IMG/VR virus record: IMGVR_UViG_3300036823_000117
Coordinates: 32,001-96,000 of that record
Source: a virus
Reading direction: 5' to 3' (one strand)
DNA length: 64,000 nt
Shown: piece after piece, positions 2,133 through 63,404 of the stretch
How the letters are laid out: each line of letters opens with the position of its first letter
Numbering within the stretch: the first letter of the stretch is position 1
The notes under the pieces: generated by a model
Told to the model about the DNA's origin: nothing
The model's input: only the letters and a program-made list of their open reading frames with translations
Database searches by the model: none
Made by a program: the position numbers and the translations under genes

Positions 2133-2169
2133 CGTGCCCCCCTGCTCGGTAGCCTTACCTGATAGATAC

Positions 2170-2240: not shown

Positions 2241-2268
2241 CTCGGTCGAACGTGTGACGCGCCCGGCC

Positions 2269-2496
2269 CTACCAATACGGATTCGTCCAGGGCCGCGCCT
2301 TGACAACGGTCCGCGCCGCGGGCAGGTCGCTGGCCGTAGTGCCCGCCTCCGCTTCGAAGGCACCCGGATACTCAGGGTCGTCGTACACCTCGAATCCGGC
2401 CGCCTCCAGTGCGCGCCGGAGCGCTGCGGTTGCGTCGTCGCCGCTGGCCGCTTCGATGTTGGCCACTACGGGCAACGATGTGTTGTAGATCGCCAT
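2269..2496 (-). CDS. Hypothetical protein
   Basis: MAIYNTSLPVV... after an RBS; operon context. Confidence 0.55.
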   Translation of the reverse strand: MAIYNTSLPVVANIEAASGDDATAALRRALEAAGFEVYDDPEYPGAFEAEAGTTASDLPAARTVVKARPWTNPYW

Positions 2497-9567: not shown

Positions 9568-9896
9568 GGTCTGAGCCAGGCGACGGCGCGGCGCCACCGT
9601 GGGGCCTGCGCGCGGGTGCGCTGTTCGTACGCGGCCTGGTACTCGGCGGTGTGCGTCTGGAGGTAGTCCTCGAGGTGGCGCTGGTCCTCGTCTTCGGGGC
9701 GGCTGTCGAGGAATTCGCGGAGCGCCCGGCCGGTCGTGACGCCGTACCGGCGCTGCAGGTGGCCGCACAGGGTGTCGTCGAGGTAGAACTTCCGGCTTCG
9801 CGCGTAGAGGTTCCGGCGGCCGTCGGGGAGGAACTCGGGGCCGAGGCATCCTGGCTGCCAGCAGTCGGTGACCATGTCCGGGCAGTTGATGCACAT
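9564..9896 (-). CDS. Hypothetical protein
   Basis: Member of the antisense cassette between TerS and TerL. Confidence 0.55.
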   Translation of the reverse strand: MCINCPDMVTDCWQPGCLGPEFLPDGRRNLYARSRKFYLDDTLCGHLQRRYGVTTGRALREFLDSRPEDEDQRHLEDYLQTHTAEYQAAYEQRTRAQAPRWRRAVAWLRP

Positions 9897-9899
9897 GGC

Positions 9900-10202
9900 T
9901 TACCTCGGCGCCGTGACGTTGAGGGTGGCTGCGCGGACGGGCATGCGGGTCATCTGCTGGATGCACAGGTCGAGGTCGTCGATGGCGAGGCCGGCGGTGG
10001 CACGGTAATGGCCGGCGTGACGCTCGAGGTCGGCCCAGGTGATCAGGTCCGGGATGCGGGCGCCCATGTCGCGGGCCATCCTGGTCGTGTAGCTGGCGAG
10101 GCGGGCGTCGGCGGTGACGATGGTGAGCTGCTCCGCGGCGGCGTACGCGATGAGCTCGGTGGTCTTGCCCGTGCCCCTGGCACCGGAGATGACGACGTCC
10201 AT
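9900..10202 (-). CDS. Miniature P-loop protein
   Basis: VVISGARGTGKTT and LAIDD. Confidence 0.65.
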   Translation of the reverse strand: MDVVISGARGTGKTTELIAYAAAEQLTIVTADARLASYTTRMARDMGARIPDLITWADLERHAGHYRATAGLAIDDLDLCIQQMTRMPVRAATLNVTAPR

Positions 10203-49166: not shown

Positions 49167-50834
49167 TCAGCCCGTGGCGGGAAGATCCCAAGGCCAGGTG
49201 GCGTCGCGGCCGGCCTCTGTGACGGGGATGATCCGGAAGGCGGCATCGGTCAGGCCGCCCAGCGTGACCCGCGTCCCGGACCCTGACGGGGTAGCCCCGG
49301 CCGAGTAGCCGCCGAAGTTCCACATGTACAGCGGGACACTCGCCGGGACCAGGTCGTCGATCAGCGTTTCCTGCATGCCGCCGTTGCGCCACATGTTGGA
49401 CGGCAGGTAGCCGGCCCGGGTCTGCTCGTCGGTGACGATCACGACACGAGTGTGCTCGGGCCGCAGGTGCGTCTTGACCGCGAGCGGGATGTCTGTGCCG
49501 CCGGGCGCCGGCTGGTAGCTGAACCGCTCGACGATCTTCAGCACGGACTCCGCGGCCGTGAACTTCACCGGCCGGGATTTCCCCCAGAATTCCACCAGGT
49601 CGGAGTGCTCGGCCCGCCGCGCGATGGCCGCGCCGAAGATGGCCGCGCCGTCCGCCCAGGGCATGTCGGAATGCTCGGAGAACTTCTGATCCCACATCGA
49701 CGGCGACCGGTCCACCAGCACCAGGGTCCGGCCGCGGAGCGCGGGCACGTTGGCCAGGGACAGGTTCAGCGCCTTCTCCAGCGGATGCCCCCACCGCAGC
49801 GACGGCGCAGCGCGGTAAGCCGACAGGAACCGGAACGGGAACTGGCGTGACCGCGCGACGTGGTCCGGGTCCGCGAGCATGGCCGCGACCTGCTCGACCA
49901 CGTCATCGGGAACGCCGGCGTCGTCCAGGTTCCGCAGGTTGCGAAGGCGTGCCATGTAGCTCATCGATGGCAGGATCGCCGTCCACGCCGCCGCGTCCAT
50001 CGGCCCCTGCAGCCAGCCCGACATCGACTCCCATGTCATCCCGGCCTCGTGCAGCTGCTCGCTGGCGGCGGGCTCGCTGATCAAAATCCGCCGGGCGGCA
50101 ACAGGCAGCGCCATCAGCGCGGCCTGCCAGCGCAGCGTCTCCAGCACCTCCGGGATCTCGTTGTCCCGCCCGTGGCGCCGCTCGATCGCGTGCCGGTACA
50201 GGGCGTCTCGCCACGTCCCGTAGGCGTTGCCGTGGTACCGGGGCTGAACGAGCTCGATCACGTCACCGAACCGGACCGCCGCCTCGGCCGTGTCCCACTT
50301 CAGCAGGGCCCGCTCGTTGTACAGACGGTTCACCGCGTCAGCGACACCGCGCTTGAAGCCGATCGGCATCTTCCGGCCGTACCGCGCCAGCCAGTACGCG
50401 ATGATCTCGCCCGGCTCATCGGCGCGCTGCAGCACCGAGTCGACGACCTTGCGGACCGGCACGCCCGGGTTGCTGACCTCACGGCCCGTGCCAGCCTCAT
50501 CGCGACGCGCCCACGCGTACTCCGCCGCGGCCTCGACGGGCGCGAGCCTCAGGTTCCCCGGCCCCCGCATCCACGCCAGCAGGCCCGCGGTCCAGTCCGG
50601 GTGGACAGCTGACGCCTCGCGGACCAGGCCCCGGAACCGGCTCACCCGCGCGTCGGTGCCCTCGTGGAACGCCTTCTCGCCTGGCAGGTTGCACGCGGCC
50701 AGGAGAAACAGCTCCGACTGCAGGTCGCGGGTGTAACCCTGCGCGCCCAGCGCGGTCCGGGCTACGGGCGACGCCGTGCTGACCACGGGCGTGCGCGTCG
50801 GAGCCTTGACGGATCCCCGGTTGTTTCTGCTCAT
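49167..50834 (-). CDS. Ro60/TROVE-domain RNA-binding protein with vWA domain
   Basis: SELFLLA, LQRADEPGE, YMARLRNLRN, SRQFPFRFLSAY, TLVLVDRSPSM, VTDEQ. Confidence 0.93.
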   Translation of the reverse strand: MSRNNRGSVKAPTRTPVVSTASPVARTALGAQGYTRDLQSELFLLAACNLPGEKAFHEGTDARVSRFRGLVREASAVHPDWTAGLLAWMRGPGNLRLAPVEAAAEYAWARRDEAGTGREVSNPGVPVRKVVDSVLQRADEPGEIIAYWLARYGRKMPIGFKRGVADAVNRLYNERALLKWDTAEAAVRFGDVIELVQPRYHGNAYGTWRDALYRHAIERRHGRDNEIPEVLETLRWQAALMALPVAARRILISEPAASEQLHEAGMTWESMSGWLQGPMDAAAWTAILPSMSYMARLRNLRNLDDAGVPDDVVEQVAAMLADPDHVARSRQFPFRFLSAYRAAPSLRWGHPLEKALNLSLANVPALRGRTLVLVDRSPSMWDQKFSEHSDMPWADGAAIFGAAIARRAEHSDLVEFWGKSRPVKFTAAESVLKIVERFSYQPAPGGTDIPLAVKTHLRPEHTRVVIVTDEQTRAGYLPSNMWRNGGMQETLIDDLVPASVPLYMWNFGGYSAGATPSGSGTRVTLGGLTDAAFRIIPVTEAGRDATWPWDLPATG

Positions 50835-50880
50835 CTCGACCCTCCAGATGGAGGGGAGGGAAGACTTCAGCGTGACCGCG

Positions 50881-50960
50881 CCCGACAACGAGTCGGACTA
50901 GGCGACATGCGCCTTAAGCGCACCTATAGCCAAGGAAGTAGCCCAATCCTGCACTTCGGG
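50881..50960 (-). ncRNA. Y RNA-like element 2 (Ro-binding-type stem)
   Basis: CCCGAAGTGCAGGATTGGGCTACTTC...GCCTAGTCCGA...TCGGG; GTCCGA motif; directly upstream of Ro. Confidence 0.7.
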
Positions 50961-51621: not shown

Positions 51622-53100
51622 ATGGCCGACCAGCAACTCGACGCCGTCGACTACAGCCGCGTCAGTGACGACAGCAAGCGCCGCGACGCCCGTTCGGTCA
51701 CCGAGCAGGCCAAGGACAACCTCGCCGACATCCGCAGGAATGGCTGGCGGCACGCCGACTCCTACTCCGACAACGACGTCTCCGCCTCGAGGTTCGGCAC
51801 GCAGGAGCGGCCCGACTGGAACCGCCTGCGCGCCGACCTCGACAACGACTCCAAGGTGTTCGATGTAATCGTCCTCTGGGAAACCAGCCGCGGTGACCGC
51901 ACCGCCGACACATGGCTCCAGTTCCTGTCGGCCTGCCGCAAGCGCGGCACCCTGATCCACGTCACGAGCCACAGCACCACCTACGACGTCCGCAAGCCCC
52001 GCCAGTGGAAGATCCTCGCCACCGACGGCATCGACAACGCCTACGCCAGCGAAGAGACATCCCTCCGCGTCAAGCGCGACATGAAGGCCTCCGCCGAGGC
52101 CGGCCGCCCTCACGGCTCGGCACCCTACGGCTACCGCCGCGTCTACGATGCCGAGACCGGCGTCATGGAAACCCAGGTCCCCGAGGAGCCAGCCGCCGGG
52201 ATCGTCCGGGAGATCATCAGCCGCGTCGCCGAAGGCGAAGCGGTTTCCGCGATCACCAAGAGCCTCAACCGTCGCGGCATCCCGTCCCCCCGCGGAAAGC
52301 AGTGGGCCTGCTACCCGGTCCGGCGCATAGCCACCAACCGCGCGTACATCGCCCAGCGGATCTGGCCGGGCGAGAGAGCACCCCTTCCCGGGATCTGGGA
52401 ACCCATCATCGACCCGCCGGACGTCTTCTGGGACGCGCAGGCCGTCCTCGAAGCCCGCCACAACCCGGCCACCCGCAGCGGCCGCGCCAGCCACCTCCTG
52501 TCCTGGCTCGCCATCTGCGGCAAATGCGGCCAGCGTCTCGTTTACAAGGGCAACGCCCGCGGGCCGGCTTCCCGCGGCACCGCAGTCCGGCCCGTCTACT
52601 CCTGCCCGGCCGGCTGCGCAGCGATGATCGCCGAATGGCTCGACACCTACGTCACCACGCGCATCATCACCCGCCTCTCCCATCCCGACCTGTTCGGCCA
52701 GCTCACAGCCGGCGGCAACGACGAAGCCGCCCATGCCCGCGCCACTGCAGCCGAGCTCCGGAGCCGCCACGCCGAAGCTGCCCAGTCGGCCGCCAGGGGA
52801 ACGCTGTCTATCACCGCCCTTGAAGCCATCGAGAACGTGCTGCTCCCCGATATCGAAGCCGCCGACCGGAAGGTCGCTGCGCTGACCGTTCCCCCGCTCA
52901 TCCGGGGCATCGTCGGCCATCCCCGCGACCAGGTCGCCGAAGAGTGGGCCGGGATGCCCATAGCGGCACAGCGCGACATCAGCCGCGTCCTCCTCGAGCA
53001 CATCAAGCTCATGCCTGCCGTCGGCGCCGCCCGCAGCGGCCACGCATTCGACCCCGACCGGATCCAGATGCGGTGGACAGGCGACGATGAAGACTCCTGA
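51622..53100 (+). CDS. Large serine recombinase (integrase)
   Basis: YSRVS catalytic motif, SAS..RP, SRGDR, PYGY, Zn ribbon CGKCG..YSCP. Confidence 0.93.
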   Translation: MADQQLDAVDYSRVSDDSKRRDARSVTEQAKDNLADIRRNGWRHADSYSDNDVSASRFGTQERPDWNRLRADLDNDSKVFDVIVLWETSRGDRTADTWLQFLSACRKRGTLIHVTSHSTTYDVRKPRQWKILATDGIDNAYASEETSLRVKRDMKASAEAGRPHGSAPYGYRRVYDAETGVMETQVPEEPAAGIVREIISRVAEGEAVSAITKSLNRRGIPSPRGKQWACYPVRRIATNRAYIAQRIWPGERAPLPGIWEPIIDPPDVFWDAQAVLEARHNPATRSGRASHLLSWLAICGKCGQRLVYKGNARGPASRGTAVRPVYSCPAGCAAMIAEWLDTYVTTRIITRLSHPDLFGQLTAGGNDEAAHARATAAELRSRHAEAAQSAARGTLSITALEAIENVLLPDIEAADRKVAALTVPPLIRGIVGHPRDQVAEEWAGMPIAAQRDISRVLLEHIKLMPAVGAARSGHAFDPDRIQMRWTGDDEDS

Positions 53101-54702: not shown

Positions 54703-55097
54703 CCGACCAGCGGTGGTGGATCTGCGACCTGGCTGACGAGACGTCACCCGGCGGCCACCTGTACGAAGCGCCGAACGCCAGGAGTGCCCTGGCCAAGTTC
54801 CGCGCGGACATGGTCGAGCATTACCTGGCCGCCGCTACGTCCCGGACGCACGCCAGGGACATCGTGCGGGCGAACCGGCCGAGGGTCTACGGCGGTCCGC
54901 TCACTGCCGCCGAGGCTTTCGAGCACGAGTTGGGGTGGGCGTGGGCATGGGAGATGTGCAGCCCGAAGTACCGCAGCGACGTCTACTGCAGCCCGGATGG
55001 CCGGGCCACCCGCGATGAGGCCGTGATGATCCTCGGCGAGAGGATCACGGCGCTGATGGAGCGTCAGGCCGGCGACGTCTACGGACTCTCGGCATGA
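54699..55097 (+). CDS. Hypothetical protein
   Basis: ATGA overlaps on both sides. Confidence 0.55.
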   Translation: MTDQRWWICDLADETSPGGHLYEAPNARSALAKFRADMVEHYLAAATSRTHARDIVRANRPRVYGGPLTAAEAFEHELGWAWAWEMCSPKYRSDVYCSPDGRATRDEAVMILGERITALMERQAGDVYGLSA

Positions 55098-56074
55098 CGG
55101 CGCTCGAGCCGGTCCTCGCGGGCACTATCGTCGCGCGGCCGCCAACTCTCTCGGTCCGCGATGTCGACGCATCCCGGTGGGGCGAGCCCGAGATGCTTCA
55201 CCACGCCGTCGACATCTGGCTCGACGCGCAGCTGTCGGTCCACACCAAGGCCGCCTACTGCCGCGAGTTCGGCTACTGGATCGAATGGTGCACCGAGAAC
55301 GGGGTCCCGGCCGCTGACCCACGTGGTCCCGACGTCGATGCCTGGCGCAAGACCTTCACCGGCCTGTCCCCCGCGACCGTCAACCGGCGGCTCAGCACCG
55401 TGTCCAGCTTCTACACCTACTGGACTGAGGAAGACGTCCTGACCCGCAACCCGGTCGCCCATGTCAAGCGACCCAAGGTGTCCGCCAAGCCCGTCAGCAT
55501 CTACCTCAGCAAGCCCCAGGCCACCCAACTCGTCGCCTACACCGACAGCCTCGACGACCCGCGGCCGGGCGTGATCTGCCGGCTCCTCGCACAGACCGGT
55601 ATGCGCGTCGGCGAGCTCACCGCCGCCACCGTCCCCGACCTGGCCATGTCCGGCGGCCACCACATCATTGAGATCACCCGCAAGGGCGGCAACCGCCAGC
55701 AGCTCGTCATCGTCCCCGGCACCTACCAGCGGACCGTCGACTACCTCGACGGCCGTACCTCGGGATACATCCTGGCCGTCGCGCGCACCGAACGGCGGGC
55801 CGCCGACGGCCAGATGGACCGCTCGTACGTCCGGCAGCTGCTGCGCCGCATCGCCCGCGAAGCCGGACTACCGGAAGCCGTCTGGCAGCGGATGCACCCG
55901 CACGTCCTGCGCCACTCAGTCGCCACGCTCCTCGCCGCCGACAAGGTCCCCGTCCACGAGATCCAGGAGTTCCTCGGCCACGCGTCCCTGCAGACCACAC
56001 AGCGGTACATCCACCACGCCCAGGAACTCGACGACAGCCCCGCCTACCGCATGCAGAAGATCCTCGCCGGCTAG
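55094..56074 (+). CDS. XerC/D-like tyrosine recombinase
   Basis: TGMRVGE, KGG, HPHVLRHS, LGHASLQTTQRY. Confidence 0.92.
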   Translation: MTALEPVLAGTIVARPPTLSVRDVDASRWGEPEMLHHAVDIWLDAQLSVHTKAAYCREFGYWIEWCTENGVPAADPRGPDVDAWRKTFTGLSPATVNRRLSTVSSFYTYWTEEDVLTRNPVAHVKRPKVSAKPVSIYLSKPQATQLVAYTDSLDDPRPGVICRLLAQTGMRVGELTAATVPDLAMSGGHHIIEITRKGGNRQQLVIVPGTYQRTVDYLDGRTSGYILAVARTERRAADGQMDRSYVRQLLRRIAREAGLPEAVWQRMHPHVLRHSVATLLAADKVPVHEIQEFLGHASLQTTQRYIHHAQELDDSPAYRMQKILAG

Positions 56075-56289
56075 ACGCGCACCCAGTCCTGGCCGTCGCA
56101 TGCAGGCCAGTACCACCGCCACCTGCAGGTCCCGCAACGCAAAGTGTGGTGGCCGTTGAAGTTGCCGCGGCCAGCGTCGCATTCGCCGCAGGGCTGCCAG
56201 CCGGCGAGTACCTTCCCCGGTCCCCAGGGGTGCCCGTCGGGGCATTCCGCTGGCCGGCTGCCTGGCGGGAAGATCGGGACGGTGTCCAC
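56071..56289 (-). CDS. Small Cys-rich protein
   Basis: CPDGH..GWQPC..GHHTLRCGTC. Confidence 0.55.
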   Translation of the reverse strand: MDTVPIFPPGSRPAECPDGHPWGPGKVLAGWQPCGECDAGRGNFNGHHTLRCGTCRWRWYWPACDGQDWVRV

Positions 56290-56499
56290 GGCCCCAGCGA
56301 ATCACACGGCGGGTTCTACCGCTCTACCCGGTCCTTGTGAAGTCGGGTAGAAACCAGTGAACCCCCCGGTTGGCCTTGTGAGCCCGAAGCTCTTGGCCTA
56401 ACCGGGAGGTCCGATCACCGTGCTGGCGGTCAAGCCGGCCGGTGAAGTGGAACAGCCCTGGCCGGCTTGGGTCTCGTCCTCGGCCGGCTAGGGCCATCG

Positions 56500-56574
<75 letters not shown>

Positions 56575-56624
56575 ATCAGAAGACTACCGCACGTGACTGT
56601 CAGCCGGCTAGCTTCCTGGCCGGC

Positions 56625-57077
56625 TCAGCGTCCGTCACGGCGGGTGTACGTGATGTAGGCGTGAATGGTGCCGTTGCCCTCGAAGCTCACCGGGGAGATC
56701 TCCGCTGACGGCCAGCAGTTGCCCGCCCGCGACCATGCTTGCGGGATGAGCCGGGTGTAGGCCGGCCACGCTTTGAACTTGCCGCTCTCATCCGACGAGT
56801 TGCTGCCGTTGTTGCACAGGTCGTCCCAGTCGGCTTCGATGCGGCCGCGGCCTTCCCCAGGGATCGTGATCGTCCCCCAGGCGTGGACGCGGATGCTGGC
56901 CGGGTCGCCGATCAGCTGGCCGCCGATGTTGCAGATCGGGTAGCCGCCTGTGGCGTGGCAGGCCCCGAGGTAGTGAACCTTCGCGGCCGCGGGAGTTGCG
57001 GCGTGCGCCGGGAAGGCGGCCACGGCAGCAAGGCCGAGGCCGCTTACTGCGGCTGCGGCCAGCCGGGTAAGGAACAT
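56625..57077 (-). CDS. Secreted Cys-containing protein
   Basis: Signal peptide MFLTRLAAAAV...PAHA. Confidence 0.65.
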   Translation of the reverse strand: MFLTRLAAAAVSGLGLAAVAAFPAHAATPAAAKVHYLGACHATGGYPICNIGGQLIGDPASIRVHAWGTITIPGEGRGRIEADWDDLCNNGSNSSDESGKFKAWPAYTRLIPQAWSRAGNCWPSAEISPVSFEGNGTIHAYITYTRRDGR

Positions 57078-57126
57078 GCTGGCCACGGTATCGGCCACAA
57101 CGGTTACTCCGCAGCGGGAAACGCAC

Positions 57127-57202
57127 TGGCTGCCCAGCCCGGACTCGAACCGGGGCACGCCCCTTAGGAGGAGGCAGCTCTATCCACCTGAGCTACAGGG
57201 CA
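57127..57202 (-). tRNA. tRNA-Arg(CCT)
   Basis: Loop CT CCT AA; encoded CCA. Confidence 0.85.
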
Positions 57203-57203
57203 T

Positions 57204-57277
57204 TGGAGGCCGCGGCGGGAATCGGACCCGCGTGAGACGCTTTGCAGGCGCCCACCTAGCCGCTCGGTCACGCGACC
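57204..57277 (-). tRNA. tRNA-Cys(GCA)
   Basis: Loop CT GCA AA; T-loop GTCCGA. Confidence 0.85.
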
Positions 57278-57281
57278 CGGG

Positions 57282-57353
57282 TGCTCCCAACAGGAATCGA
57301 ACCTGTGTTGCCAGCTTCGGAGGCTGGTGTCCTATCCCCTAGACGACAGGAGC
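57282..57353 (-). tRNA. tRNA-Arg(CCG)
   Basis: Loop CT CCG AA. Confidence 0.85.
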
Positions 57354-57419
57354 ATGATCATGGACAGGGACCTGGGCCCCGGCCCGGGTGTGTGTGCCCG
57401 GCTTACGCCCTGTCCTCCG

Positions 57420-57501
57420 TGCGCCGTGATGGATTCGAACCACCGTGTCCGTAGATCGCGGTTTACAGCCGCGCGCATTCGCCCACTCTGCCAACGACGC
57501 C
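57420..57501 (-). tRNA. tRNA-Tyr(GTA)
   Basis: Loop CT GTA AA; long variable arm. Confidence 0.85.
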
Positions 57502-57589
57502 TAGCCCGGAGTCTTTGAGTCCCGCCTGCTCGCGAACAGGCTCTCCGGATCACCCGTGCATGCTCGGGTGCTGGCCATGCCAGGGAACA

Positions 57590-57664
57590 TGGGGAGGACA
57601 GCGGGAATCCAACCCGCGTGACCGGGTTCACAACCCGGCGCTCTAGCACTGAGCTATATCCTCA
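57590..57664 (-). tRNA. tRNA-His(GTG)
   Basis: Loop TT GTG AA; T-loop GTTGGA. Confidence 0.8.
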
Positions 57665-57665
57665 G

Positions 57666-57737
57666 TAGCCGCTGGAGGTACCGATCCTCCGGCCCCCGAT
57701 GTGTGAGATCGGTGCTCCGCCATTGAGCTAAGCGGCC
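57666..57737 (-). tRNA. tRNA-Val(CAC)
   Basis: Loop CT CAC AC; atypical T-loop. Confidence 0.8.
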
Positions 57738-57738
57738 G

Positions 57739-57810
57739 TGCGCCCAGGAGGACTCGAACCTCCATTGCCGACTTCGTAGGCCGGCGTCCTATCCGTTGAA
57801 CGATAGGCGC
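57739..57810 (-). tRNA. tRNA-Arg(ACG)
   Basis: Loop CT ACG AA. Confidence 0.9.
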
Positions 57811-57811
57811 T

Positions 57812-57886
57812 TGGTAGTCGCTCGAGGTGCTGACCCTCGGACCTTCCGCTAGTCGGGCGGATGCTCTGCCGCTGAGCTAAGCGACC
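57812..57886 (-). tRNA. tRNA-Val(GAC)
   Basis: Loop CC GAC TA; atypical T-loop. Confidence 0.75.
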
Positions 57887-57963
57887 AGGTGGGCTGCCCC
57901 GGCAACTCGGACCGCACGTCTGCGTGTCCTGCTACCGAGGGCAGCCCTTTTCTTAGAGTTGAG

Positions 57964-58036
57964 CGAGACCGACGAGATTTGAACTCGCGCTGTCACCTTG
58001 ACAGGGTGATGTGCTAACCGCTGACACTACGGCCCC
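57964..58036 (-). tRNA. tRNA-Asp(GTC)
   Basis: Loop CT GTC AA. Confidence 0.9.
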
Positions 58037-58098
58037 ATTCCACCGGACTTGACGTTGCCCTGACCACCGTCAGGGTCGAGGCGCCGGCGTTGCCTTCG

Positions 58099-58169
58099 CT
58101 CCCCCACCTGGACTCGAACCAAGATCCACCGGTTAACGGCCGGCCGCTCTGCCCTTAAGCTATGAGGGA
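58099..58169 (-). tRNA. tRNA-Asn(GTT)
   Basis: Loop CC GTT AA. Confidence 0.85.
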
Positions 58170-58324
58170 TTGGACCTGCGAAAATGTCAGACCGCATCCA
58201 TATACTTAGCGGATGCAAGTCACCGAACTAGAATGCGGGCATTGCCAGAATCTCGTGGCGCTGGACAAGCGGTGCCATTGGGAGTTCGACCACGGCTACC
58301 TGCTCCTGGTCGATGGGCGCTTCG

Positions 58325-58397
58325 TCGCGGGGAAGGGACTCGAACCCTCGACCTGCGGGTTATGAGCCCGCCGCGCTACCAACTGCGCCACCCCGCA
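58325..58397 (-). tRNA. tRNA-Met(CAT), initiator-like
   Basis: GGG CT CAT AA CCC. Confidence 0.9.
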
Positions 58398-58398
58398 G

Positions 58399-58469
58399 TA
58401 GCCCCACAGGGACTCGAACCCTGTCTCGCGGGTCGAAGGTCCGCGGTCCTACCCATAGACGATGGGGCC
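58399..58469 (-). tRNA. tRNA-Glu(TTC)
   Basis: Glu-type D arm; loop CC TTC GA. Confidence 0.7.
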
Positions 58470-58482
58470 TTGCTGTCCTGCG

Positions 58483-58553
58483 TACCCAGTAGGGGTGTCG
58501 AACCCCTGCTGCCGGGCTGAGAACCCGGCGGTCTGCCGTTAACCTAACTGGGC
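58483..58553 (-). tRNA. tRNA-Glu(CTC)
   Basis: Loop TT CTC AG. Confidence 0.85.
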
Positions 58554-58558
58554 TAGAG

Positions 58559-58631
58559 CGCGTCGACCAGGAATCGAACCCAGATCCACCGCTTAGAAGG
58601 CGGCCGTGCTTGTCCGTTGCACCACCGACGC
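58559..58631 (-). tRNA. tRNA-Arg(TCT)
   Basis: Loop CT TCT AA. Confidence 0.85.
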
Positions 58632-58632
58632 G

Positions 58633-58703
58633 TGCCTCGCCAAGGTACCGACCCCTGTTCCATCGGGTAAAAGCCGATTGCATCACCTTAATGCTTGCGA
58701 GGC
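58633..58703 (-). tRNA. tRNA-Lys(TTT)
   Basis: Loop CT TTT AC; atypical T-loop. Confidence 0.75.
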
Positions 58704-58704
58704 G

Positions 58705-58778
58705 TAGCCCACCAGGGGATTGAACCCTGCATCTCCTGCTTATAAGGCAGGCTCCGTCAACCAGGCGGATCGTGGGCG
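58705..58778 (-). tRNA. tRNA-Ile(TAT)
   Basis: CCTGC CT TAT AA GCAGG; atypical D arm. Confidence 0.75.
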
Positions 58779-58779
58779 T

Positions 58780-58856
58780 TGGTAGGTCACCAGAGAATCG
58801 GACTCTGCATCACCGCGTTATCAGCGCGGCCTCTCCAACCAGGCGAGACGTGACCA
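58780..58856 (-). tRNA. tRNA-Ile(GAT)
   Basis: Loop CT GAT AA; atypical D arm; encoded CCA. Confidence 0.8.
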
Positions 58857-58857
58857 G

Positions 58858-58950
58858 CGGAAGTGGTGAGGGTCGAACTCACAAGGCGACTCGCGCCGCT
58901 CGGCTGTTTTCGGGACAGCTGCCGTCAGCCTCTCATCGGCTTGCACTTCC
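58858..58950 (-). tRNA. tRNA-Ser(CGA)
   Basis: Loop CC CGA AA; long variable arm. Confidence 0.85.
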
Positions 58951-58954
58951 ATCG

Positions 58955-59039
58955 CGGAGGACGGACTATTCGAAAGCCACGTCTTGCGACGCGCATCCGC
59001 TAGCAACGGAGCCCGGCTCGCCTGTCCGGTTCATCCTCC
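58955..59039 (-). tRNA. tRNA-Ser(GCT)
   Basis: Loop TT GCT AG; long variable arm. Confidence 0.8.
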
Positions 59040-59040
59040 A

Positions 59041-59123
59041 TGGTGCGCTCGGAGGGATTCGAACCCTCATGCCCGTAGGCTCCGGGTCTGAGCCGGATGC
59101 GTCAGCCGTTGCGCCACGAGCGC
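59041..59123 (-). tRNA. tRNA-Leu(CAG)
   Basis: Loop CT CAG AC; encoded CCA. Confidence 0.9.
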
Positions 59124-59342
59124 GTGACGGGGAGTCCCTGGAGCGCAAGTACCGAGCCGTGCGGTGCCAGCCGACGGCATTTCATCGCTCTCCCTGACTG
59201 CGCCGGCCGCTGCACTGGCACTATCTCGCGGCCGTACGATCCGGGACTTGATCCCCGGGGCGCGTGCACGCGCCCGCTTGTCGCCGCACGTATTAGTTCC
59301 GGGGATTCCCTTCCGGTGACCCGGTACCGTGCGGCAGTAAAA

Positions 59343-59419
59343 CGGGGAGTGCTCTGCCTGGCTGAGCTACACCGGGCCTTGGCCCGGCGACCGGATTTGA
59401 ACCGGCGACCTCTCCCCCG
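59343..59419 (-). ncRNA. Circularly permuted tRNA-like RNA A (YrlA-type module)
   Basis: Order: T arm, loop-closed acceptor stem, D arm; ends pair GGGGAG/CTCCCC. Confidence 0.8.
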
Positions 59420-59491
59420 AGCGGAAGACGGGATTCGAACCCGCGACCCTTACCTTGGCAAGGTAATGCTCTACCGCTGAGCCACCTCCGC
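59420..59491 (-). tRNA. tRNA-Gly(GCC)
   Basis: Loop TT GCC AA. Confidence 0.9.
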
Positions 59492-59572
59492 ATGAGCCGG
59501 GTTCCAATCTGATGCCTAGGGTTTCCCCAGTGGTATAGCGGCTACAGTCACCCGACAAACCTCTACCGTACG

Positions 59573-59645
59573 AGCCACCGTTCGGTTTCGAACCGAACAC
59601 CTTCTGCCTACCATGCAGACGCTCTGCCAACTGAGCTACGGCGGC
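59573..59645 (-). tRNA. tRNA-Thr(GGT)
   Basis: Loop AT GGT AG. Confidence 0.85.
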
Positions 59646-59655
59646 GTGATTATCG

Positions 59656-59728
59656 CTGGCGGCCCAGGATTCGGACCTGGACTGGCGGGGCCAAAACCCG
59701 CAGGGCTGCCTGGTTACCCCAGCCGCCA
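59656..59728 (-). tRNA. tRNA-Gln(TTG)
   Basis: Loop TT TTG GC; T-loop GTCCGA. Confidence 0.85.
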
Positions 59729-59733
59729 TCGTG

Positions 59734-59806
59734 AGCCCGCTAGAGGTCTCGAACCCCTCGCCTGCCCTTTACAGGAGGGCCGCTCTACCAGCTGAGCTAA
59801 GCGGGC
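59734..59806 (-). tRNA. tRNA-Thr(TGT)
   Basis: Loop CC TGT AA. Confidence 0.85.
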
Positions 59807-59885
59807 AAGTCTCCCACCGGCCGCAGGACTCGAACCCTGCGTGTCTGCCGACGACGCCGGCCGTCGCTGCGTTACCGGTGGTTCG

Positions 59886-59959
59886 TGTCCACGGTGGGAT
59901 TCGAACCCACACTGTCCAGCCCCTCATGCTGGCGCCTCCTGCCGTTGGGCTACGTAGAC
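59886..59959 (-). tRNA. tRNA-Leu(GAG), short variable arm
   Basis: Loop AT GAG GG. Confidence 0.8.
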
Positions 59960-60068
59960 ATGGCGCGCGAGACAGGGCATGGACCCGTCAGCACGATAAT
60001 GGCGCTTGCGCCTCCCCCATGCCGTCATGGGCGCTACGCCGCTGAGCCGCGAGTATCCCCGCAGCCAG

Positions 60069-60141
60069 AGCCTCCGACTGGCCTCGAACCAGTTGCCTTC
60101 CGCTTACGGGGCGGACGCTCTGCCAGGTGAGCTACAGAGGC
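60069..60141 (-). tRNA. tRNA-Thr(CGT)
   Basis: Loop CC CGT AA. Confidence 0.85.
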
Positions 60142-60284
60142 ATGGGAAGTTCTGGCCAGCCAAGGTCAACCCATCCGTCCCAGCCGGTCACGCCTGACAG
60201 CGTTGCCCCGGCCCAGACGTCGTACCACTCGGCATCCAGATCATCCATGACAGGGCCAGACGTCGCACCGCCTGGTCTTGTCCG

Positions 60285-60355
60285 CTGGGAACCCTGGATT
60301 CGAACCAGAACCGACGGAGCCAGAGTCCGCCGTGCTGCCGTTACACCAGCTCCCA
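60285..60355 (-). tRNA. tRNA-Gln(CTG)
   Basis: Loop CT CTG GC. Confidence 0.9.
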
Positions 60356-60360
60356 TTGAG

Positions 60361-60435
60361 TACGGGCGGGGAGAGTCGAACTCCCAAGCAACCCGTTTTG
60401 AGCGGGCCAGGTCTGCCAGTTCCCGTCACGCCCGC
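60361..60435 (-). tRNA. tRNA-Leu(CAA), short variable arm
   Basis: Loop CT CAA AA. Confidence 0.85.
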
Positions 60436-60440
60436 TCGAG

Positions 60441-60513
60441 TGCGTCGCCTCGGCCTCGAACCGAGAGCCCGCGGAGTAAGAGTCCGCTGCACGTCCACTT
60501 GTGCTTGCGACGC
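60441..60513 (-). tRNA. tRNA-Lys(CTT)
   Basis: Loop CT CTT AC. Confidence 0.85.
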
Positions 60514-60517
60514 ATAG

Positions 60518-60588
60518 AGCTCCACCGGGGAATCGAACCCCGCTCGTCAGCTTGGAAGGCTGACACATCACCACAATGCTTGTGGAGC
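60518..60588 (-). tRNA. tRNA-Gly(TCC)
   Basis: Loop CT TCC AA. Confidence 0.85.
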
Positions 60589-60589
60589 G

Positions 60590-60664
60590 TGGCGATGGAC
60601 ATCGGACTCGAACCGAGACTGCCCCACTTATGGAGGGGCGTGCTGCCAGTTACACTATCCATCT
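60590..60664 (-). tRNA. Atypical tRNA, probably Met(CAT); anticodon register ambiguous
   Basis: D and T arms and CCA present; loop TCCATAAGT between CCCC/GGGG. Confidence 0.55.
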
Positions 60665-60716
60665 GACGCCGGGAGCGACCCGCCGTCCAGGAGCTGGCTG
60701 ATCAGGCCGTGCTCCG

Positions 60717-60789
60717 TGCCTGCCGCTGGAATCGAACCAGCCACCCCCGCCTTTTCAGAGCGGTGCTCTACCGGATGAGCTAGACAGAC
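60717..60789 (-). tRNA. tRNA-Phe(GAA)
   Basis: Loop CT GAA AA. Confidence 0.9.
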
Positions 60790-60874
60790 TTATGCAGGGG
60801 TTCTCCGGCTTGCGCCTGCCCAGGAGGACCGCGGCCCGAAGTCCGCGCGCCCTACCCTGCTCCTGGTCTCCGAG

Positions 60875-60946
60875 TCGGGATACAAGGACTCGGACCTTGT
60901 CTGCCTGGTCCCAAACCAGGCGCGCTGACCCTTACGCGATATCCCG
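60875..60946 (-). tRNA. tRNA-Pro(TGG)
   Basis: Loop TT TGG GA; T-loop GTCCGA. Confidence 0.85.
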
Positions 60947-60950
60947 TTCA

Positions 60951-61031
60951 CGGGGAGTGCTCTACCAGCTGAGCTACCGGACGCCCCTTGGGGCGCCCAG
61001 GCCGGACTTGAACCGGCGACCTCTCCCCTCG
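60951..61031 (-). ncRNA. Circularly permuted tRNA-like RNA B (YrlA-type module)
   Basis: GGGGAG AGGTC GCCGG TTCAAGT CCGGC, closed stem, TA GCTC AGCTGGTA GAGC A CTCCCC. Confidence 0.8.
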
Positions 61032-61104
61032 TGGAGCACCGGGGACTCGAACCCCGCACATCCTGCTTGCAAAACAGGTGCTCTACCTGATGAGCTAGCG
61101 CCCC
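61032..61104 (-). tRNA. tRNA-Ala(TGC)
   Basis: Loop TT TGC AA; G3-U70 pair. Confidence 0.9.
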
Positions 61105-61248
61105 ATTGCCCGGTCCCGGCCAGCCCGCGGCGTACCGCGAGCCGGCCAGGACCGGAGTCTTACTGCGCGGCCCTGGCTCGGCCGCGCTGCGTTTCCCGCT
61201 GTGGATTTGTCAATGCACAGACCCATTGCCCCGGAGGGTCGGGTACCG

Positions 61249-61319
61249 CTGGGCCAGAGGGATTCGGACCCCCATCGCCGGTTTTGGAGACCGGAGCTCT
61301 GCCGTTGAGCTATGTCCCA
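61249..61319 (-). tRNA. tRNA-Trp(CCA)
   Basis: Loop CT CCA AA; T-loop GTCCGA. Confidence 0.85.
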
Positions 61320-61321
61320 TT

Positions 61322-61359
61322 AACGAGAAAGCCGCCCTCCAGGGGCTCCTGGGGGCGGC
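61322..61359 (-). terminator. Attenuator-type intrinsic terminator in front of the tRNA array
   Basis: GCCGCCC CCAGG..CCTGG A GGGCGGC followed by TTTCTCGTT. Confidence 0.75.
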
Positions 61360-61378
61360 GTCTTCGTAGTGTTTGCCC

Positions 61379-61480
61379 CTACGTTGACGCCTTGGTCCCG
61401 AACGTGTCCAGCAGCATGGCTCGCGAGCAGCTGGTGGCGGTGTGCCGCTGCTGCTCGTACCTGGGCTGGTTGCTGGTCAT
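61379..61480 (-). CDS. Putative 33-aa leader peptide
   Basis: MTSNQPRYEQQRHTATSCSRAMLLDTFGTKAST; ATG 7 nt after the -10 box. Confidence 0.65.
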   Translation of the reverse strand: MTSNQPRYEQQRHTATSCSRAMLLDTFGTKAST

Positions 61481-62139
61481 GGATCCAACTGTACGCGAGG
61501 GGTCGGGCAGTCGGCAACTGCATTTTGGGTTGCGTCGAGGTCGGTGATGATTTTGCTGATTGTCTCGGCGGCGACGGGGCGGAGGTTCCAGGCGTCAAGA
61601 CCGACGTGGACCATTTTTCCGCGCCATTGTGGTTCTCCGCGGAACGGGGTGAATGGCAGTGCGTCGACCTGGGCGCGCTCGGCTCCGTGGGTGTGGCCGT
61701 GGAGCAGCCATTTGCCTTCGTCGCGGAGCCGGTACTGGGTGTGGCGGTCTTCGTCGGAGTGGTCGCCGTAGTAGGGAAAGTGGGACAAGAGGACTTCGGT
61801 GCCGTCGATTTTCCGGCGGGCGTACTGCTGGATAGACGCGAAGTACTGGAGCCACAGCCGCTGGGTTCTGTGCGCGTCCCTGTGGGCTGGCCAGGGGGCG
61901 TCGTGGTTGCCGGTGATGAGGTGGATGGTGCCGTTGAGCCGGGCGACCCAGGGGAGGATCTCGGCTGGTTTCCCGAGGCCTACGTCGCCGAGGTGCCAGA
62001 CGGTGTCATCGCGGCCGACCGCGGCGTTCCAGTTGGCGACGATCGCCTCGTCATGGTCAGGGGCGGTGTCGAACCCGCGGAGCCTGCCGACCATGGCGTG
62101 GGTGAAATGGGTGTCGGAGGTGAAGAACTGGCCGCCCAT
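61477..62139 (-). CDS. Calcineurin-like metallophosphoesterase
   Basis: SDTHF, HLGD, GNHD and HGHTH motifs. Confidence 0.9.
   Translation of the reverse strand: MGGQFFTSDTHFTHAMVGRLRGFDTAPDHDEAIVANWNAAVGRDDTVWHLGDVGLGKPAEILPWVARLNGTIHLITGNHDAPWPAHRDAHRTQRLWLQYFASIQQYARRKIDGTEVLLSHFPYYGDHSDEDRHTQYRLRDEGKWLLHGHTHGAERAQVDALPFTPFRGEPQWRGKMVHVGLDAWNLRPVAAETISKIITDLDATQNAVADCPTPRVQLDP
61488..61517 (-). promoter_or_regulatory. Promoter of the leader/tRNA operon
   Basis: TTGCCG-18-TACAGT. Confidence 0.65.
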
Positions 62140-63404
62140 CACGCCGCCTTGAATCCGGGGATGTGGCGGGTGGCGAGGTCGTGGATGGCGTCGGCGTGGT
62201 GGTCGTGGCGTTTGCAGGCTTCGACGATCTCGGCGGGCGCGATCCCGGAAATGCCGCGGATCTTCAGGTCGTCGTGTCCGTAGTAGCGGGATATGAGGCG
62301 GGAGGCTTGTTCTTCGGTGGCGGGGCCGAAGTGCTCGCGGAGGTCGATGCGGCCGTCTCGGGCGACGGCGTCGTCGAGGACGCCGGGGTTGTTGGTTGTC
62401 ATGACGGTGAGGAGGCCGTGGGGTGTGGCGATGCCGTCGAGGGCGTTGAGGAGGCCGGAGAGGGTGAGGCCGCCGTGGTTGTCGTCGCGGCTGGTTGCGG
62501 CTGAGAAGACGTCTACGTCTTCGAGGAGGAGCATGGAGCGGGGGCCGATGCGGGAGATGTGGCGGAGGAGGTCGCCGTCTTTTTTCACGTCGGCGAGGGG
62601 CATGTACCAGACGTCGAGGCCGAAGTGGGACGCGATGGCGCGGGCCACTGAAGTTTTGCCGGTGCCCGGGTCGCCTTCGTAGAGGTGGCCGCGGTGCCAC
62701 GGGATGCACCTGCGGAGGTAGTCCTGTTCGGCGTCGAGCCACCGCTGGACGTCGGTGACGAGGCGGTGCAGCTGCCCGTCGGGGAGGATGACGGAGTCGA
62801 GGGTGCGCGGGGGGAGGTCGTCGCAGCGCTGCCAGTCGTCCCACTGGCCGAGCATCCGGAATGCGGGCTTGGTGCGTTCCCGGTGGGTGCGCTCGAGGAC
62901 GCCGGCGATCTGGGTGAGGAGGGCGCGGCGGGCGGTGACGGACCGGGCGGTGAAGATGATCTCCGGTGGCTTCCACCTTTGGCCGGCGGTCTCGTCGCCG
63001 CCTTCGGATACGACGACCTTGATTTTGTGGCCGGCGACTCGGATGTCCTGCTCGCGGGTGCCGTCGTAGCGGAGGCGCAGCTCGGGGGGCTTGGCGGGTT
63101 CGTCGTCTTCGGGCATGGCGAAGTGGCGGCGGGTGGACCAGGCGACAAGGGCGTGCTGTTCCCTGGGTGGGAGGAGGCTGAGGACCCAGGTGTGGAGCTC
63201 GTCGTAGATGGCGTCGTTGCCGGAGACCTTGACGGTGTAGGTGGTCCGGCTGCGGGCCTGGCGGCGGAGGTGGTCGGCGAGGGGCCATGCGGCCTGGCCG
63301 GCGGCGAAGGCGAGCGCGGTCCGGGGGGCGTGTTCCTGGAGGGCGGCGATCAGGTCCGACGCGGACCGGGCCCGGATCGGGCTGGCCGGGACTTCGTGGG
63401 TCAA
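62139..63404 (-). CDS. BCS1-like AAA ATPase
   Basis: IPWHRGHLYEGDPGTGKTS, LLLEDVD, LTLSGLLNALDG, RDGRID. Confidence 0.9.
   Translation of the reverse strand: MTHEVPASPIRARSASDLIAALQEHAPRTALAFAAGQAAWPLADHLRRQARSRTTYTVKVSGNDAIYDELHTWVLSLLPPREQHALVAWSTRRHFAMPEDDEPAKPPELRLRYDGTREQDIRVAGHKIKVVVSEGGDETAGQRWKPPEIIFTARSVTARRALLTQIAGVLERTHRERTKPAFRMLGQWDDWQRCDDLPPRTLDSVILPDGQLHRLVTDVQRWLDAEQDYLRRCIPWHRGHLYEGDPGTGKTSVARAIASHFGLDVWYMPLADVKKDGDLLRHISRIGPRSMLLLEDVDVFSAATSRDDNHGGLTLSGLLNALDGIATPHGLLTVMTTNNPGVLDDAVARDGRIDLREHFGPATEEQASRLISRYYGHDDLKIRGISGIAPAEIVEACKRHDHHADAIHDLATRHIPGFKAA

Follow-up and report, generated by a model that had tools for sequence, protein, structure and literature searches.

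Predicted host-type rRNA leader and trailer signals around the tRNA arrays of a soil actinobacterial phage and its relatives

Large tRNA arrays in phages are well catalogued, and to our knowledge the transcription and processing of these kilobases of untranslated, Rho-exposed RNA are without explanation. In Bacillus, tRNA clusters lie inside or behind true rRNA operons. Upstream of CRISPR arrays in gamma-proteobacteria, boxA protects the long untranslated repeat RNA from Rho-dependent termination. For the E. coli rRNA operon, the relevant passages of PMC10250234 place boxC within the 5' strand of the leader-trailer helix and describe the proposal that boxA fixes the boxC-bearing strand to the polymerase as the rRNA loops out. 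In the 16S rRNA of S. coelicolor, a processing site lies in a segment complementary to the leader and is ascribed to RNase III (relevant passage of PMC4681348). Phages too have been described to use a boxA-type RNA signal to obtain processive host RNA polymerase, at the lambdoid nut sites (relevant passages of PMC2724277 and PMC10250234), and excerpts of PMC13753749 and PMC5725501 document reuse of the rrn boxA outside rRNA operons, at CRISPR arrays and suhB of gamma-proteobacteria. Large tRNA array units have been reported in Mycobacterium genomes, plasmids and phages, some of them on actinophages (PMC5966550, PMC6409571); in the text of PMC5966550 the terms promoter, terminator, antitermin and inverted repeat have no occurrences, and thus no expression signals appear to be described there. 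Our search of the full-text literature found no earlier description of an rRNA-style leader and trailer around phage tRNAs. The sequence data presented here suggest that a soil actinobacterial phage encloses 32 tRNA genes in a copy of the host's rRNA transcription and excision signals, and that at least seven related arrays are organized likewise.

We analyzed a 64,000-nt stretch of viral DNA (the window). The initial annotation of the window had reported a 14-nt exact reverse complement, extending to 17 of 18 nt, with arms about 4.07 kb apart, and re-reading of the coordinates agrees with it. The plus-strand sequence CAGCGGGAAACGCA at 57112-57125 has its exact reverse complement at 61188-61201, with 4062 nt between the 14-nt arms (4076 nt start-to-start), and the extended match pairs 57108-57125 with 61188-61205, leaving an A.C mismatch on the tRNA-sense strand. 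The arms are also placed as reported: TTGACAAATCC (61213-61203) precedes the 5' arm on the minus strand, and the 3' arm begins 1 nt past the CCA of tRNA-Arg(CCT), which ends at 57127. The annotated number of bracketed tRNAs had to be corrected, as the 34 tRNAs are those of the whole window (ARAGORN) and just 32 lie between the arms; of the remaining two, a tRNA-Trp is upstream of the 5' arm and a tRNA-Met is beyond the 3' arm and a small ORF.

Table 1. Features of the tRNA unit, in order of transcription.
Feature	Coordinates	Strand	Basis and remarks
Terminator-like hairpin and U-rich run	61322..61359	-	Hairpin 61359-61331, U-run 61330-61322; read from sequence
tRNA-Trp(CCA), opens the unit and lies 5' of the helix, not inside it	61248..61319	-	ARAGORN, Rfam
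Leader stem-loop	61221..61244	-	Minimum-free-energy fold; outer stem ACCC/GGGU around CCC-UCCG-GGG
boxA-like motif TTGACAAATCC	61203..61213	-	Sequence; relatives and host rrn leaders have TTGAGAACTCC
5' (leader) strand of helix, UCCACAGCGGGAAACGCA	61188..61205	-	Overlaps end of boxA-like motif; boxC position of rrn leaders
Two strong leader hairpins	61110..61187	-	8-bp stem 61187-61165; 21-bp perfect hairpin 61155-61110
32 tRNA genes, Ala(TGC) to Arg(CCT), inside the helix	57127..61104	-	ARAGORN; Rfam tRNA matches
3' (trailer) strand of helix, UGCGUUUCCCGCUGCGGA	57108..57125	-	1 nt after CCA of last tRNA
Downstream ORF, outside the helix	56625..57098	-	Possible starts GTG 57098 or ATG 57077
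tRNA-Met(CAT), downstream of the helix	56499..56574	-	ARAGORN, Rfam

The unit is encoded entirely on the minus strand (Table 1). Its leader stem-loop occupies the position of boxB in rrn leaders. The boxA-like motif occurs once in the 118.6 kb genome, upstream of the 32 tRNAs, downstream of tRNA-Trp and on the same strand as both. Two hairpins separate the helix strand from the first tRNA inside the helix; the leader folds with a minimum free energy of -88.3 kcal/mol (z-score -5.4), and 11 of the 18 bases of the arm are unpaired in this fold of the leader by itself. At the other end of the array, the final three bases of the trailer strand belong to the GGAG ribosome-binding site of the next ORF, which encodes a small protein with a signal-peptide-like N-terminus; a Pfam search with this product gave no family. 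The tRNA-Met that follows is initiator-like by our reading of its anticodon stem rather than by tool output, and a tRNA-Met also lies directly past the trailer strand in the related array L205. Rfam found no rRNA between 49000 and 64000, and the helix encloses only tRNAs. Upstream, the terminator-like hairpin ends 2 nt before tRNA-Trp, which counts against the explanation we favor below. A similar hairpin and U-run precede tRNA-Trp in L039, L040 and L041. A consensus scan did not list this hairpin on the minus strand, and a sigma-70 promoter scan of 56000-62000 returned 0 sites.

Taken by itself, the inverted repeat does not exceed chance expectation. Maximal exact inverted-repeat pairs at least 14 nt long number 82 in the window, and the motif, with up to 2 mismatches, has 2 copies in the window against a shuffle mean of 0.80, with 2 or more copies in 19 of 100 shuffles. 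The repeat is significant because of its placement and because it is conserved, with compensation, in relatives. When segments of the window were used as background for the strand following the motif, 0 of 626 equaled the uninterrupted pairing run of the true trailer, and 2 of 626 reached its run when one non-pair was allowed.

Looking for covarying arms around other phage tRNA arrays had been suggested as a check on the initial annotation, and such arms are conserved with compensatory changes in all eight tRNA arrays that have the same start and both ends readable. Each of these arrays has a leading tRNA-Trp, immediately followed by the leader with a covarying stem-loop, the motif TTGAnAAnTC and a strand whose pairing partner lies just beyond the last tRNA. 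The eight helices fold to 17-25 pairs with energies of -26 to -45 kcal/mol, and their arms are 3,028-15,160 nt apart. For six arrays, the best partner of the 28 nt after the motif lies 2-6 nt past the last tRNA in five and 133 nt past it in L176; the pairing forms runs of 12-18 uninterrupted pairs, reached by 0 of the 96-626 background segments per locus. Two further arrays, L210 and L205, also fit leader-trailer pairing. A 12-tRNA array, L202 (= L211), has no convincing trailer within 2.9 kb downstream.

The inner part of the helix, beside the tRNAs, has a different sequence in each of the eight phages, and in each it is compensated by its partner, for example GGGAAACGCA/TGCGTTTCCC in the window, GGGAAACGTC/GACGTTTCCC in L210, GGAAACGAGAAG/CTTCTCGTTTCC in L041, GGAAAAGCC/GGCTTTTCC in L185 and AGCACC/GGTGCT in L039. 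An additional G in the window, L210 and L176 is answered by an additional C. G.U pairs on the tRNA-sense strand are present in the folds of L041, L185, L205 and L039, and an ungapped scan places a U.G pair at the outer CUC/GGG of L176 as well. When all arms were compared against all, the phage's own trailer gave the strictly longest run for 4 of 8 leaders, and by duplex energy the own pair was lowest in 5 of 8 rows and 7 of 8 columns; a shared core leaves the arms with no more than partial phage specificity. With 17 of 18 pairs, the window helix has a length at the lower end of the range for RNase III, and its mismatch is an A.C instead of a G.U.

Gene order is likewise conserved, with arrays starting Trp-Ala and ending with the same tRNAs in L039, L040, L041, L176, L185 and L210; L205 has the same start and a different internal order. 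Among 18 array-linked metagenome loci, tRNA-Trp was called in 16, L203 being cut before tRNA-Trp and L206 having none called. The consensus fold of 13 aligned leaders contains a stem-loop of 4 pairs, 3 of them changed on both sides. All 13 keep TTGAnAAnTC outside the paired part, and in all 13 the helix strand overlaps the end of the motif.

The motif of the relatives, TTGAGAACTC followed by CACAGCGG or AACAGCGG, has the same sequence in actinobacterial 16S leaders, and a close variant precedes 23S. The window's own TTGACAAATCC departs furthest from the host form, agreeing with TTGAGAACTC at 8 of 10 positions (TTGACAAAU in the window versus UUGAGAACU in the relatives and host rrn leaders). A search pattern built from the leaders of L041 and L039, TTGAGAACTCMAYAGYG, returned at least 120 matches, nearly all of them in Actinomycetota. 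In the four loci scanned with Rfam, 16S lies 109-212 nt downstream of the pattern (4/4). Among the matches listed, 51 had enough sequence for assessment, and in 43 of these the 16S 5' site is within 500 nt downstream, at about 190 nt. In 28 of 28 operons the 16S trailer is complementary to the strand after the motif, and in 22 of 27 a second copy of the motif lies ahead of 23S, both counts being among the matches listed.

These comparisons support, at the level of sequence and structure, the rRNA-operon-like layout of boxA-like motif and leader-trailer helix first proposed in the initial annotation, through the eight helices of eight arrays and the match to 16S and 23S leaders. Like the leader of a bacterial rRNA operon (boxB-boxA-boxC with 16S and 23S helices), and in particular its actinobacterial version, the phage unit has a stem-loop, a boxA-like motif and a 5' helix strand, with the complement past the stable-RNA block. 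The sequences are near-identical (TTGAGAACTCCACAGCGGAAA in phage leaders, TTGAGAACTCAACAGCGTGCC in host 16S leaders, TTGAGAACTGCACAGTGGACG in host 23S leaders), and the ACUC/GGGU end with its G.U pair is common to the helices of the phages and of actinobacterial rRNA operons. In contrast to rRNA operons, the phage helices enclose 11-39 tRNAs, in some phages ORFs too, and no rRNA; their loops span 3-15 kb compared with approximately 1.9 kb for the host 16S loops measured here; tRNA-Trp stands ahead of the leader; and the element is borne by a virus. The structure in the window is therefore a variant of the pre-rRNA-type leader-trailer helix and not a strict member, as it encloses only tRNAs. 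The comparison with lambda is less close. Lambda requires its own N protein on boxB and has a boxA that deviates from the rrn consensus, whereas the motif here is of the host rrn form, is joined to a leader-trailer helix and has stable RNA as its cargo; no N-like gene was identified. The CRISPR and suhB cases differ in being cellular, without a leader-trailer helix, from a different phylum and with a different boxA sequence.

We consider it probable that the two arms pair in RNA as leader and trailer strands and that the unit copies the layout of the host rRNA operon, with Nus antitermination and RNase III excision. One long minus-strand transcript would carry, in order, the leading tRNA-Trp, the stem-loop, the boxA-like motif and the abutting 5' helix strand, and its complement past the last tRNA would close a loop of about 4.06 kb with the 32 tRNAs. 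By analogy, the actinobacterial motif would be a NusB/S10 site, and the nascent boxA-like RNA is expected to recruit host NusB/S10 with NusA/NusG, as in the host system. The recruited complex would make RNA polymerase resist Rho and intrinsic terminators over 3-15 kb of untranslated RNA. It may also tether the leader strand to the polymerase until the trailer has been transcribed, so that arms kilobases apart could pair. Cleavage of the helix by host RNase III would detach the array from the upstream tRNA-Trp as well as from the downstream mRNA; the helix is predicted to occlude the ribosome-binding site of this mRNA. Maturation of the tRNAs would then be completed by RNase P and 3' trimming. 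Weighing against this account, besides the hairpin ahead of tRNA-Trp, are the 0 sites of the promoter scan, the divergence of the window motif, the length and A.C mismatch of the window helix, the partial phage specificity of the arms and the array L202.

A conserved RNA helix could also serve another purpose, protecting the ends of the long precursor against exonucleases or making translation of the downstream ORF depend on a completed array, with the rrn-like motif acting merely as part of the helix or as a NusA pause site and with neither Nus antitermination nor RNase III excision. The overlap of the window's 3' strand with GGAG, the GGAG in the L041 trailer and the divergence of the window motif are consistent with this, as is the importance of the E. 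coli helix for 30S biogenesis independently of RNase III, described in part of PMC10250234. We nevertheless regard it as unlikely, given that TTGAnAAnTC is kept outside the paired part in every aligned leader and equals the host rrn leader motif found ahead of 23S as well. The genes past the trailer differ among phages, which makes a common role in translational control unlikely. The likeness to host leaders and the diverged window motif might instead mark an inert relic, a captured part of a host rRNA operon in which tRNAs replaced 16S and whose leader and trailer are in decay. Complementarity would be lost in a relic, yet pairing is kept through different compensated sequences across phages in which the neighboring AAA-ATPase is just 55-68% identical, and we regard decay as highly unlikely.

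The initial annotation had raised an invertible segment or mobile cassette as its alternative, in which the arms are inverted recombination sites or cassette ends in DNA. Genes for a tyrosine recombinase (55094-56074) and a large serine recombinase (51622-53100) do lie 1-5.5 kb from the 3' arm, the place and orientation of the module relative to the AAA-ATPase gene vary among the window, G010 and G015, and in run X3 the match of one relative's contig ends at 57107, where the 3' arm has its outer edge. Both recombinases, however, have integrase-type domain sets (the serine recombinase being 492 aa). In all eight arrays with both ends, tRNA-Trp shares the strand of the block although the arms do not enclose it, so the genome differences are whole-module moves and not arm-to-arm inversions. 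Two X1 contigs (56900-59048 and 59420-61400) are collinear across both arms, and the sequencing check for inversion listed 15 joints of 90, none of these 15 at the arms, a check made on contigs, in which rare variants are not visible. The G.U pairs specific to the tRNA-sense strand, the compensated bulge and the identity with the host rrn RNA helix fit RNA better than sites for a recombinase. Inversion thus finds no support, and a DNA-level element is highly improbable. A chance inverted repeat, for which the abundance of exact pairs and the shuffle result speak, is refuted by the comparative data, with the same arrangement in 8 of 8 related arrays and pairing runs matched by 0 background segments.

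An rrn-type leader and trailer would give a concrete, testable answer to how the arrays are expressed. If this reading is true, boxA/Nus antitermination and leader-trailer looping extend from rRNA to viral tRNA cargo, and because their loops range from 3 to 15 kb, the arrays offer a natural test of the model in which boxA holds the leader until the trailer emerges. It also points to a dependency of actinophages on host NusB/S10 and RNase III, and the cassette could be used to express long non-coding arrays in Streptomyces or mycobacteria. More tentatively, we propose that actinophages took host rRNA-operon expression as a portable cassette, in which the ribosomal antitermination complex is brought by a host-type boxA leader to polymerases transcribing phage DNA and, in tRNA-array phages, the helix loops out and excises a tRNA precursor of up to 15 kb in the manner of a pre-rRNA. 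Such a leader mimic could draw Nus factors off host rRNA synthesis during infection. Hijacking of the host rRNA leader may be a general actinophage strategy, as the mimic is also found in the cultured Streptomyces phages Amela and Lika, which makes this part of the reading open to bench testing. In both of these phages it follows a consensus promoter where an operon begins, and it has no trailer.

The inverted repeat is present in the window as the initial annotation reported it: bases 57112-57125 match the reverse complement of 61188-61201 exactly, and extending the arms to 57108-57125 and 61188-61205 gives pairing at 17 of 18 positions. On the tRNA strand the 5' arm comes after TTGACAAATCC and the 3' arm begins 1 nt past the CCA of tRNA-Arg(CCT). 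The 34 tRNA genes said to be bracketed by the repeat were recovered, all on the minus strand, but only 32 of them lie between the arms; tRNA-Trp is upstream of the 5' arm, and a tRNA-Met is on the far side of both the 3' arm and a small ORF. Taken alone the repeat proves nothing. The window holds 82 maximal exact inverted pairs of at least 14 nt, and, with up to 2 mismatches allowed, 19 of 100 shuffles contain the motif at least twice.

A megablast of positions 56000-62000 against GenBank phages returned only tRNA-Met matches and no close relatives, and searching viral contigs with one protein at a time (the 603-aa ORF, the AAA-ATPase or the terminase) revealed no close kin. Many homologues of the AAA-ATPase adjoining the array (62139-63404, minus strand) occur on contigs 90-165 kb long, and alignment of 29 of these proteins led to the retrieval of 36 viral loci. 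tRNAs were present in 8 of the 21 such records searched, four of which carry 22-39. Three of the four (L039, L040 and L041) start with Trp and Ala, finish with Tyr and Cys/Arg(CCT), and keep most of the internal order found in the window, while the tRNA order of the fourth, L042, differs. This related 170-kb record has a tmRNA gene (9700-10046, minus strand) inside its array and is without the leader motif resembling that of host rRNA (rrn) operons. Motif scans added L176 (identical to L191), L185, L205 and L210, and each of their arrays starts with Trp.

In every such array the spacer 3' of tRNA-Trp contains a stem-loop, then TTGAnAAnTC, and then a directly abutting helix strand that is complementary to sequence just past the last tRNA. 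The search for paired arms around other phage arrays, proposed with the initial annotation, gave a positive answer: in all eight arrays the arms form 17-25 pairs at -26 to -45 kcal/mol, across separations of 3,028 to 15,160 nt. For the 28 nt after the motif, the best partner lies 2-6 nt past the last tRNA in five of six arrays; in the sixth, L176, it lies 133 nt past the last tRNA, beyond a 29-codon ORF. The uninterrupted runs in these six arrays are 12-18 pairs long, a length reached by 0 of the 96-626 background segments at each locus. The L176 ORF (9217-9306) is enclosed by the loop, 3' of the last tRNA and 5' of the trailer strand, and encodes a hydrophobic peptide (MHKIFAIMAMVLAIAAVFAVPLTFYHG).

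The helix core CAGCGG/CCGCTG is common to the phages. The tRNA-proximal part of the helix varies from phage to phage, each version having a matching partner strand. Three leaders have an extra G, for which their trailers carry an additional C, and 3 of the 4 pairs in the outer stem of the leader stem-loop have changes on both sides among 13 leaders. Because the core is shared, a leader's own trailer is not always its best partner: it is strictly best by run length for only 4 of 8 leaders, and by duplex energy the own partner ranks first for 5 of 8 leaders and 7 of 8 trailers. One 12-tRNA array (L202/L211) has no convincing trailer in 2.9 kb of downstream sequence.

Leader and trailer helix strands nearest the tRNAs, in the window and in related arrays
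Locus	Leader strand	Trailer strand	Remark
Window	GGGAAACGCA	TGCGTTTCCC	
L210	GGGAAACGTC	GACGTTTCCC	
L176	GGGAAACACCG	CGGTGTTTCCC	
L041	GGAAACGAGAAG	CTTCTCGTTTCC	
L185	GGAAAAGCC	GGCTTTTCC	
L039	AGCACC	GGTGCT	
L205	AAUGGCAUGAG	CUCGUGCCGUU	two G.U pairs

The pattern TTGAGAACTCMAYAGYG, built from the L041 and L039 leaders, was scanned against one genome per prokaryotic species and gave at least 120 matches; among the matches listed nearly all are from Actinomycetota, many at contig ends. An Rfam scan of the complete-genome loci placed 16S rRNA 109-212 nt downstream of the match in 4 of 4, and a 16S 5' primer site is found within 500 nt (median 189 nt) in 43 of the 51 matches with at least 450 nt of downstream sequence. 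In all 28 operons with enough sequence, the host strand following the motif (ACUCAACAGCGUGCC) is complementary over 14-20 positions to GGCACGCUGUUGGGU, located approximately 90-240 nt past the 16S 3' end. This pairing is the 16S leader-trailer helix. It has an A-U, C-G, U.G, C-G end, and a CUC/GGG end with the U.G is also paired in L039, L176 and L185 in an ungapped scan. A second copy, TTGAGAACT[G/A]CACAGTGGACG, precedes the 23S gene in 22 of 27 operons, and the phage leaders (TTGAGAACTCCACAGCGGAAA) are intermediate between the host 16S and 23S forms. The boxA consensus is given as UGCUCUUUAACA for E. coli and AUGAUCUUUGAAA for B. subtilis by PMC13753749, which also places boxA at CRISPR operons; the actinobacterial and phage CUUGAGAAC aligns with these consensuses in the CUUU/GA(A) core. 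Because the leader motif and the CUC/GGG end are as in host rrn operons, the phage cassette reproduces the leader and trailer of the host rrn operon, tRNAs taking the place of rRNA.

The alternative raised initially, that the arms are the ends of an invertible DNA segment, has in its favour the tyrosine recombinase and large serine recombinase nearby and the different placement of the whole module relative to the AAA-ATPase gene among genomes. Against this, tRNA-Trp, which is outside the arms, always has the same orientation as the block, and G.U pairs and a compensated bulge are features of RNA. Contigs from public soil-metagenome runs did not bear inversion out: those of the run that covers the phage best are collinear across both arms, and no arm joint occurs among the 15 joints listed out of 90, in contigs where tRNA matches from other organisms add noise. 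On a related-phage contig from one run (X3), the match differs at 3 positions in 208 nt over 57107-57313 and breaks off at the outer end of the trailer strand (57107), which suggests that this edge of the cassette is a mosaic boundary.

Sequence comparison shows leader-trailer pairing and homology to host leaders for the phage cassette, and we infer factor binding, antitermination and cleavage there from the host system. In the mechanism we favour, Nus-factor antitermination would be loaded at the leader, leader and trailer would pair co-transcriptionally, and RNase III would excise the tRNA block. The downstream ORF has its ribosome-binding site (GGAG) partly within the trailer strand, and this site too would be freed by cleavage. 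Work by Arnvig (2004) and Beuth (2005) reportedly concerns the M. tuberculosis rrn nut site. In E. coli, boxC is part of the 5' strand of the leader-trailer helix, which is essential. It is proposed there that boxA, with NusB bound, tethers the leader to the polymerase exit during looping-out of the rRNA, the trailer pairing as it emerges (PMC10250234). Under this model the chief objection to pairing over 4-15 kb falls away. For S. coelicolor, PMC4681348 describes a processing site at +52 relative to the 16S 3' end, within sequence complementary to the leader, and ascribes it to RNase III (AbsB). M. tuberculosis NusA binds rrn boxC, according to work cited in PMC2724277. Among 48 translated window ORFs, a Pfam scan identified no domain of the RNase III, Nus-like or N-like kind.

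A terminator-like hairpin with a U-run stops 2 nt before tRNA-Trp in the window, and similar ones precede Trp in L039-L041. No promoter was evident in a scan around the array (0 sites). TTGACA was considered as a promoter element and rejected: it has no -10 box at 16-19 nt in the window or L039, and the same place reads TTGAGA or TTGATA in relatives. Between the helix strand and tRNA-Ala, the leader segment contains a perfect hairpin of 21 bp, capped by a UACG loop (61110-61155, minus strand), which is long enough to serve by itself as a substrate of RNase III. ARAGORN predicts a tRNA-Tyr with anticodon ATA at 60590-60663 (minus strand); its Rfam score of 26.6 bits is under the gathering score, and it may therefore be a degenerate or unusual tRNA.

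Matches to the leader also occur away from tRNA arrays. A 17-nt leader pattern had three viral matches, two already known and the third in a 42-kb record without tRNAs, where it is probably due to chance or to another context. A degenerate viral scan gave 21 matches, 18 of them new, and 16 of these 18 have no array nearby; in a metagenome scan 13 of 31 new matches are without tRNA. On two metagenome contigs with no tRNA nearby (L197, 277-297; L207, 4655-4675, minus strand), the TTGACAACTCCACAGCGGAAAG motif comes after CTTGCCAC repeats, and the leader may serve another context there. No cultured phage with both a tRNA array and the leader is among the matches listed (30 of 134; 25 of 40 records).

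The cultured Streptomyces phages Amela (L220, ~612-650) and Lika (L222, ~582-715) carry an rrn-leader-like stretch (GGAAGCG...CCTTGAGAACTCAACAG) near the right genome end, upstream of an acetyltransferase gene (gp75); the Amela version is GGAAGCGTCCG..CCTTGAGAACTCAACAG. The stretch is preceded by a consensus TTGACA-N17-TAGAGT promoter in Lika and by a TAGAGT -10-like box in Amela, and neither phage has the trailer helix or a tRNA array. The gp75 operon may be subject to rrn-type antitermination. The presence of the stretch suggests that borrowing of host boxA is wider than tRNA arrays and makes these phages a bench system for it. Full-text literature searches gave no paper in which boxA, antitermination or a leader-trailer helix is connected with the tRNA arrays of phages or actinobacteria, and the text of the main survey of mycobacterial tRNA arrays has 0 mentions of promoter, terminator or antitermination. 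An earlier mention of the cassette may exist elsewhere, in subscription journals or supplements.

The IMG/VR record, of which the window is bases 32001-96000, is 118.6 kb long with a CheckV completeness estimate of 97%, and public runs containing the phage are soil metagenomes only, with no RNA run among those listed. The window has a GC content of 64-73% and siphovirus-type structural genes (terminase, SPP1-type portal, capsid, tail tube and Dit). Its metallophosphoesterase is nearest to those of Arthrobacter, Mycobacterium, Rhodococcus and Streptomyces phages, and the virus is therefore an actinobacterial phage. The large serine recombinase (51622-53100) and tyrosine integrase (55094-56074) genes are neighbours on the plus strand, and an initiator-like tRNA-Met (56499-56574, minus strand), where the attachment site may be, lies ~425 nt from the integrase gene. 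A 20-nt copy of the 3' end of this tRNA-Met gene (56492-56511), exact but inverted, is present 55 kb away at 1145-1164, inside a DUF3560 ORF (1119-2363, minus strand), and no exact inverted pair in the window is longer. Approximately 6 kb from the array is a gene for a 573-aa TROVE (Ro60-like) domain protein (49167-50888, minus strand), and array spacers contain weak Rfam matches to the Y RNA-like YrlA (60933-61042 and 59347-59414, minus strand), at 37.7 and 30.9 bits against a gathering score of 69. The protein and these matches could constitute a phage Ro/Y-RNA pair.
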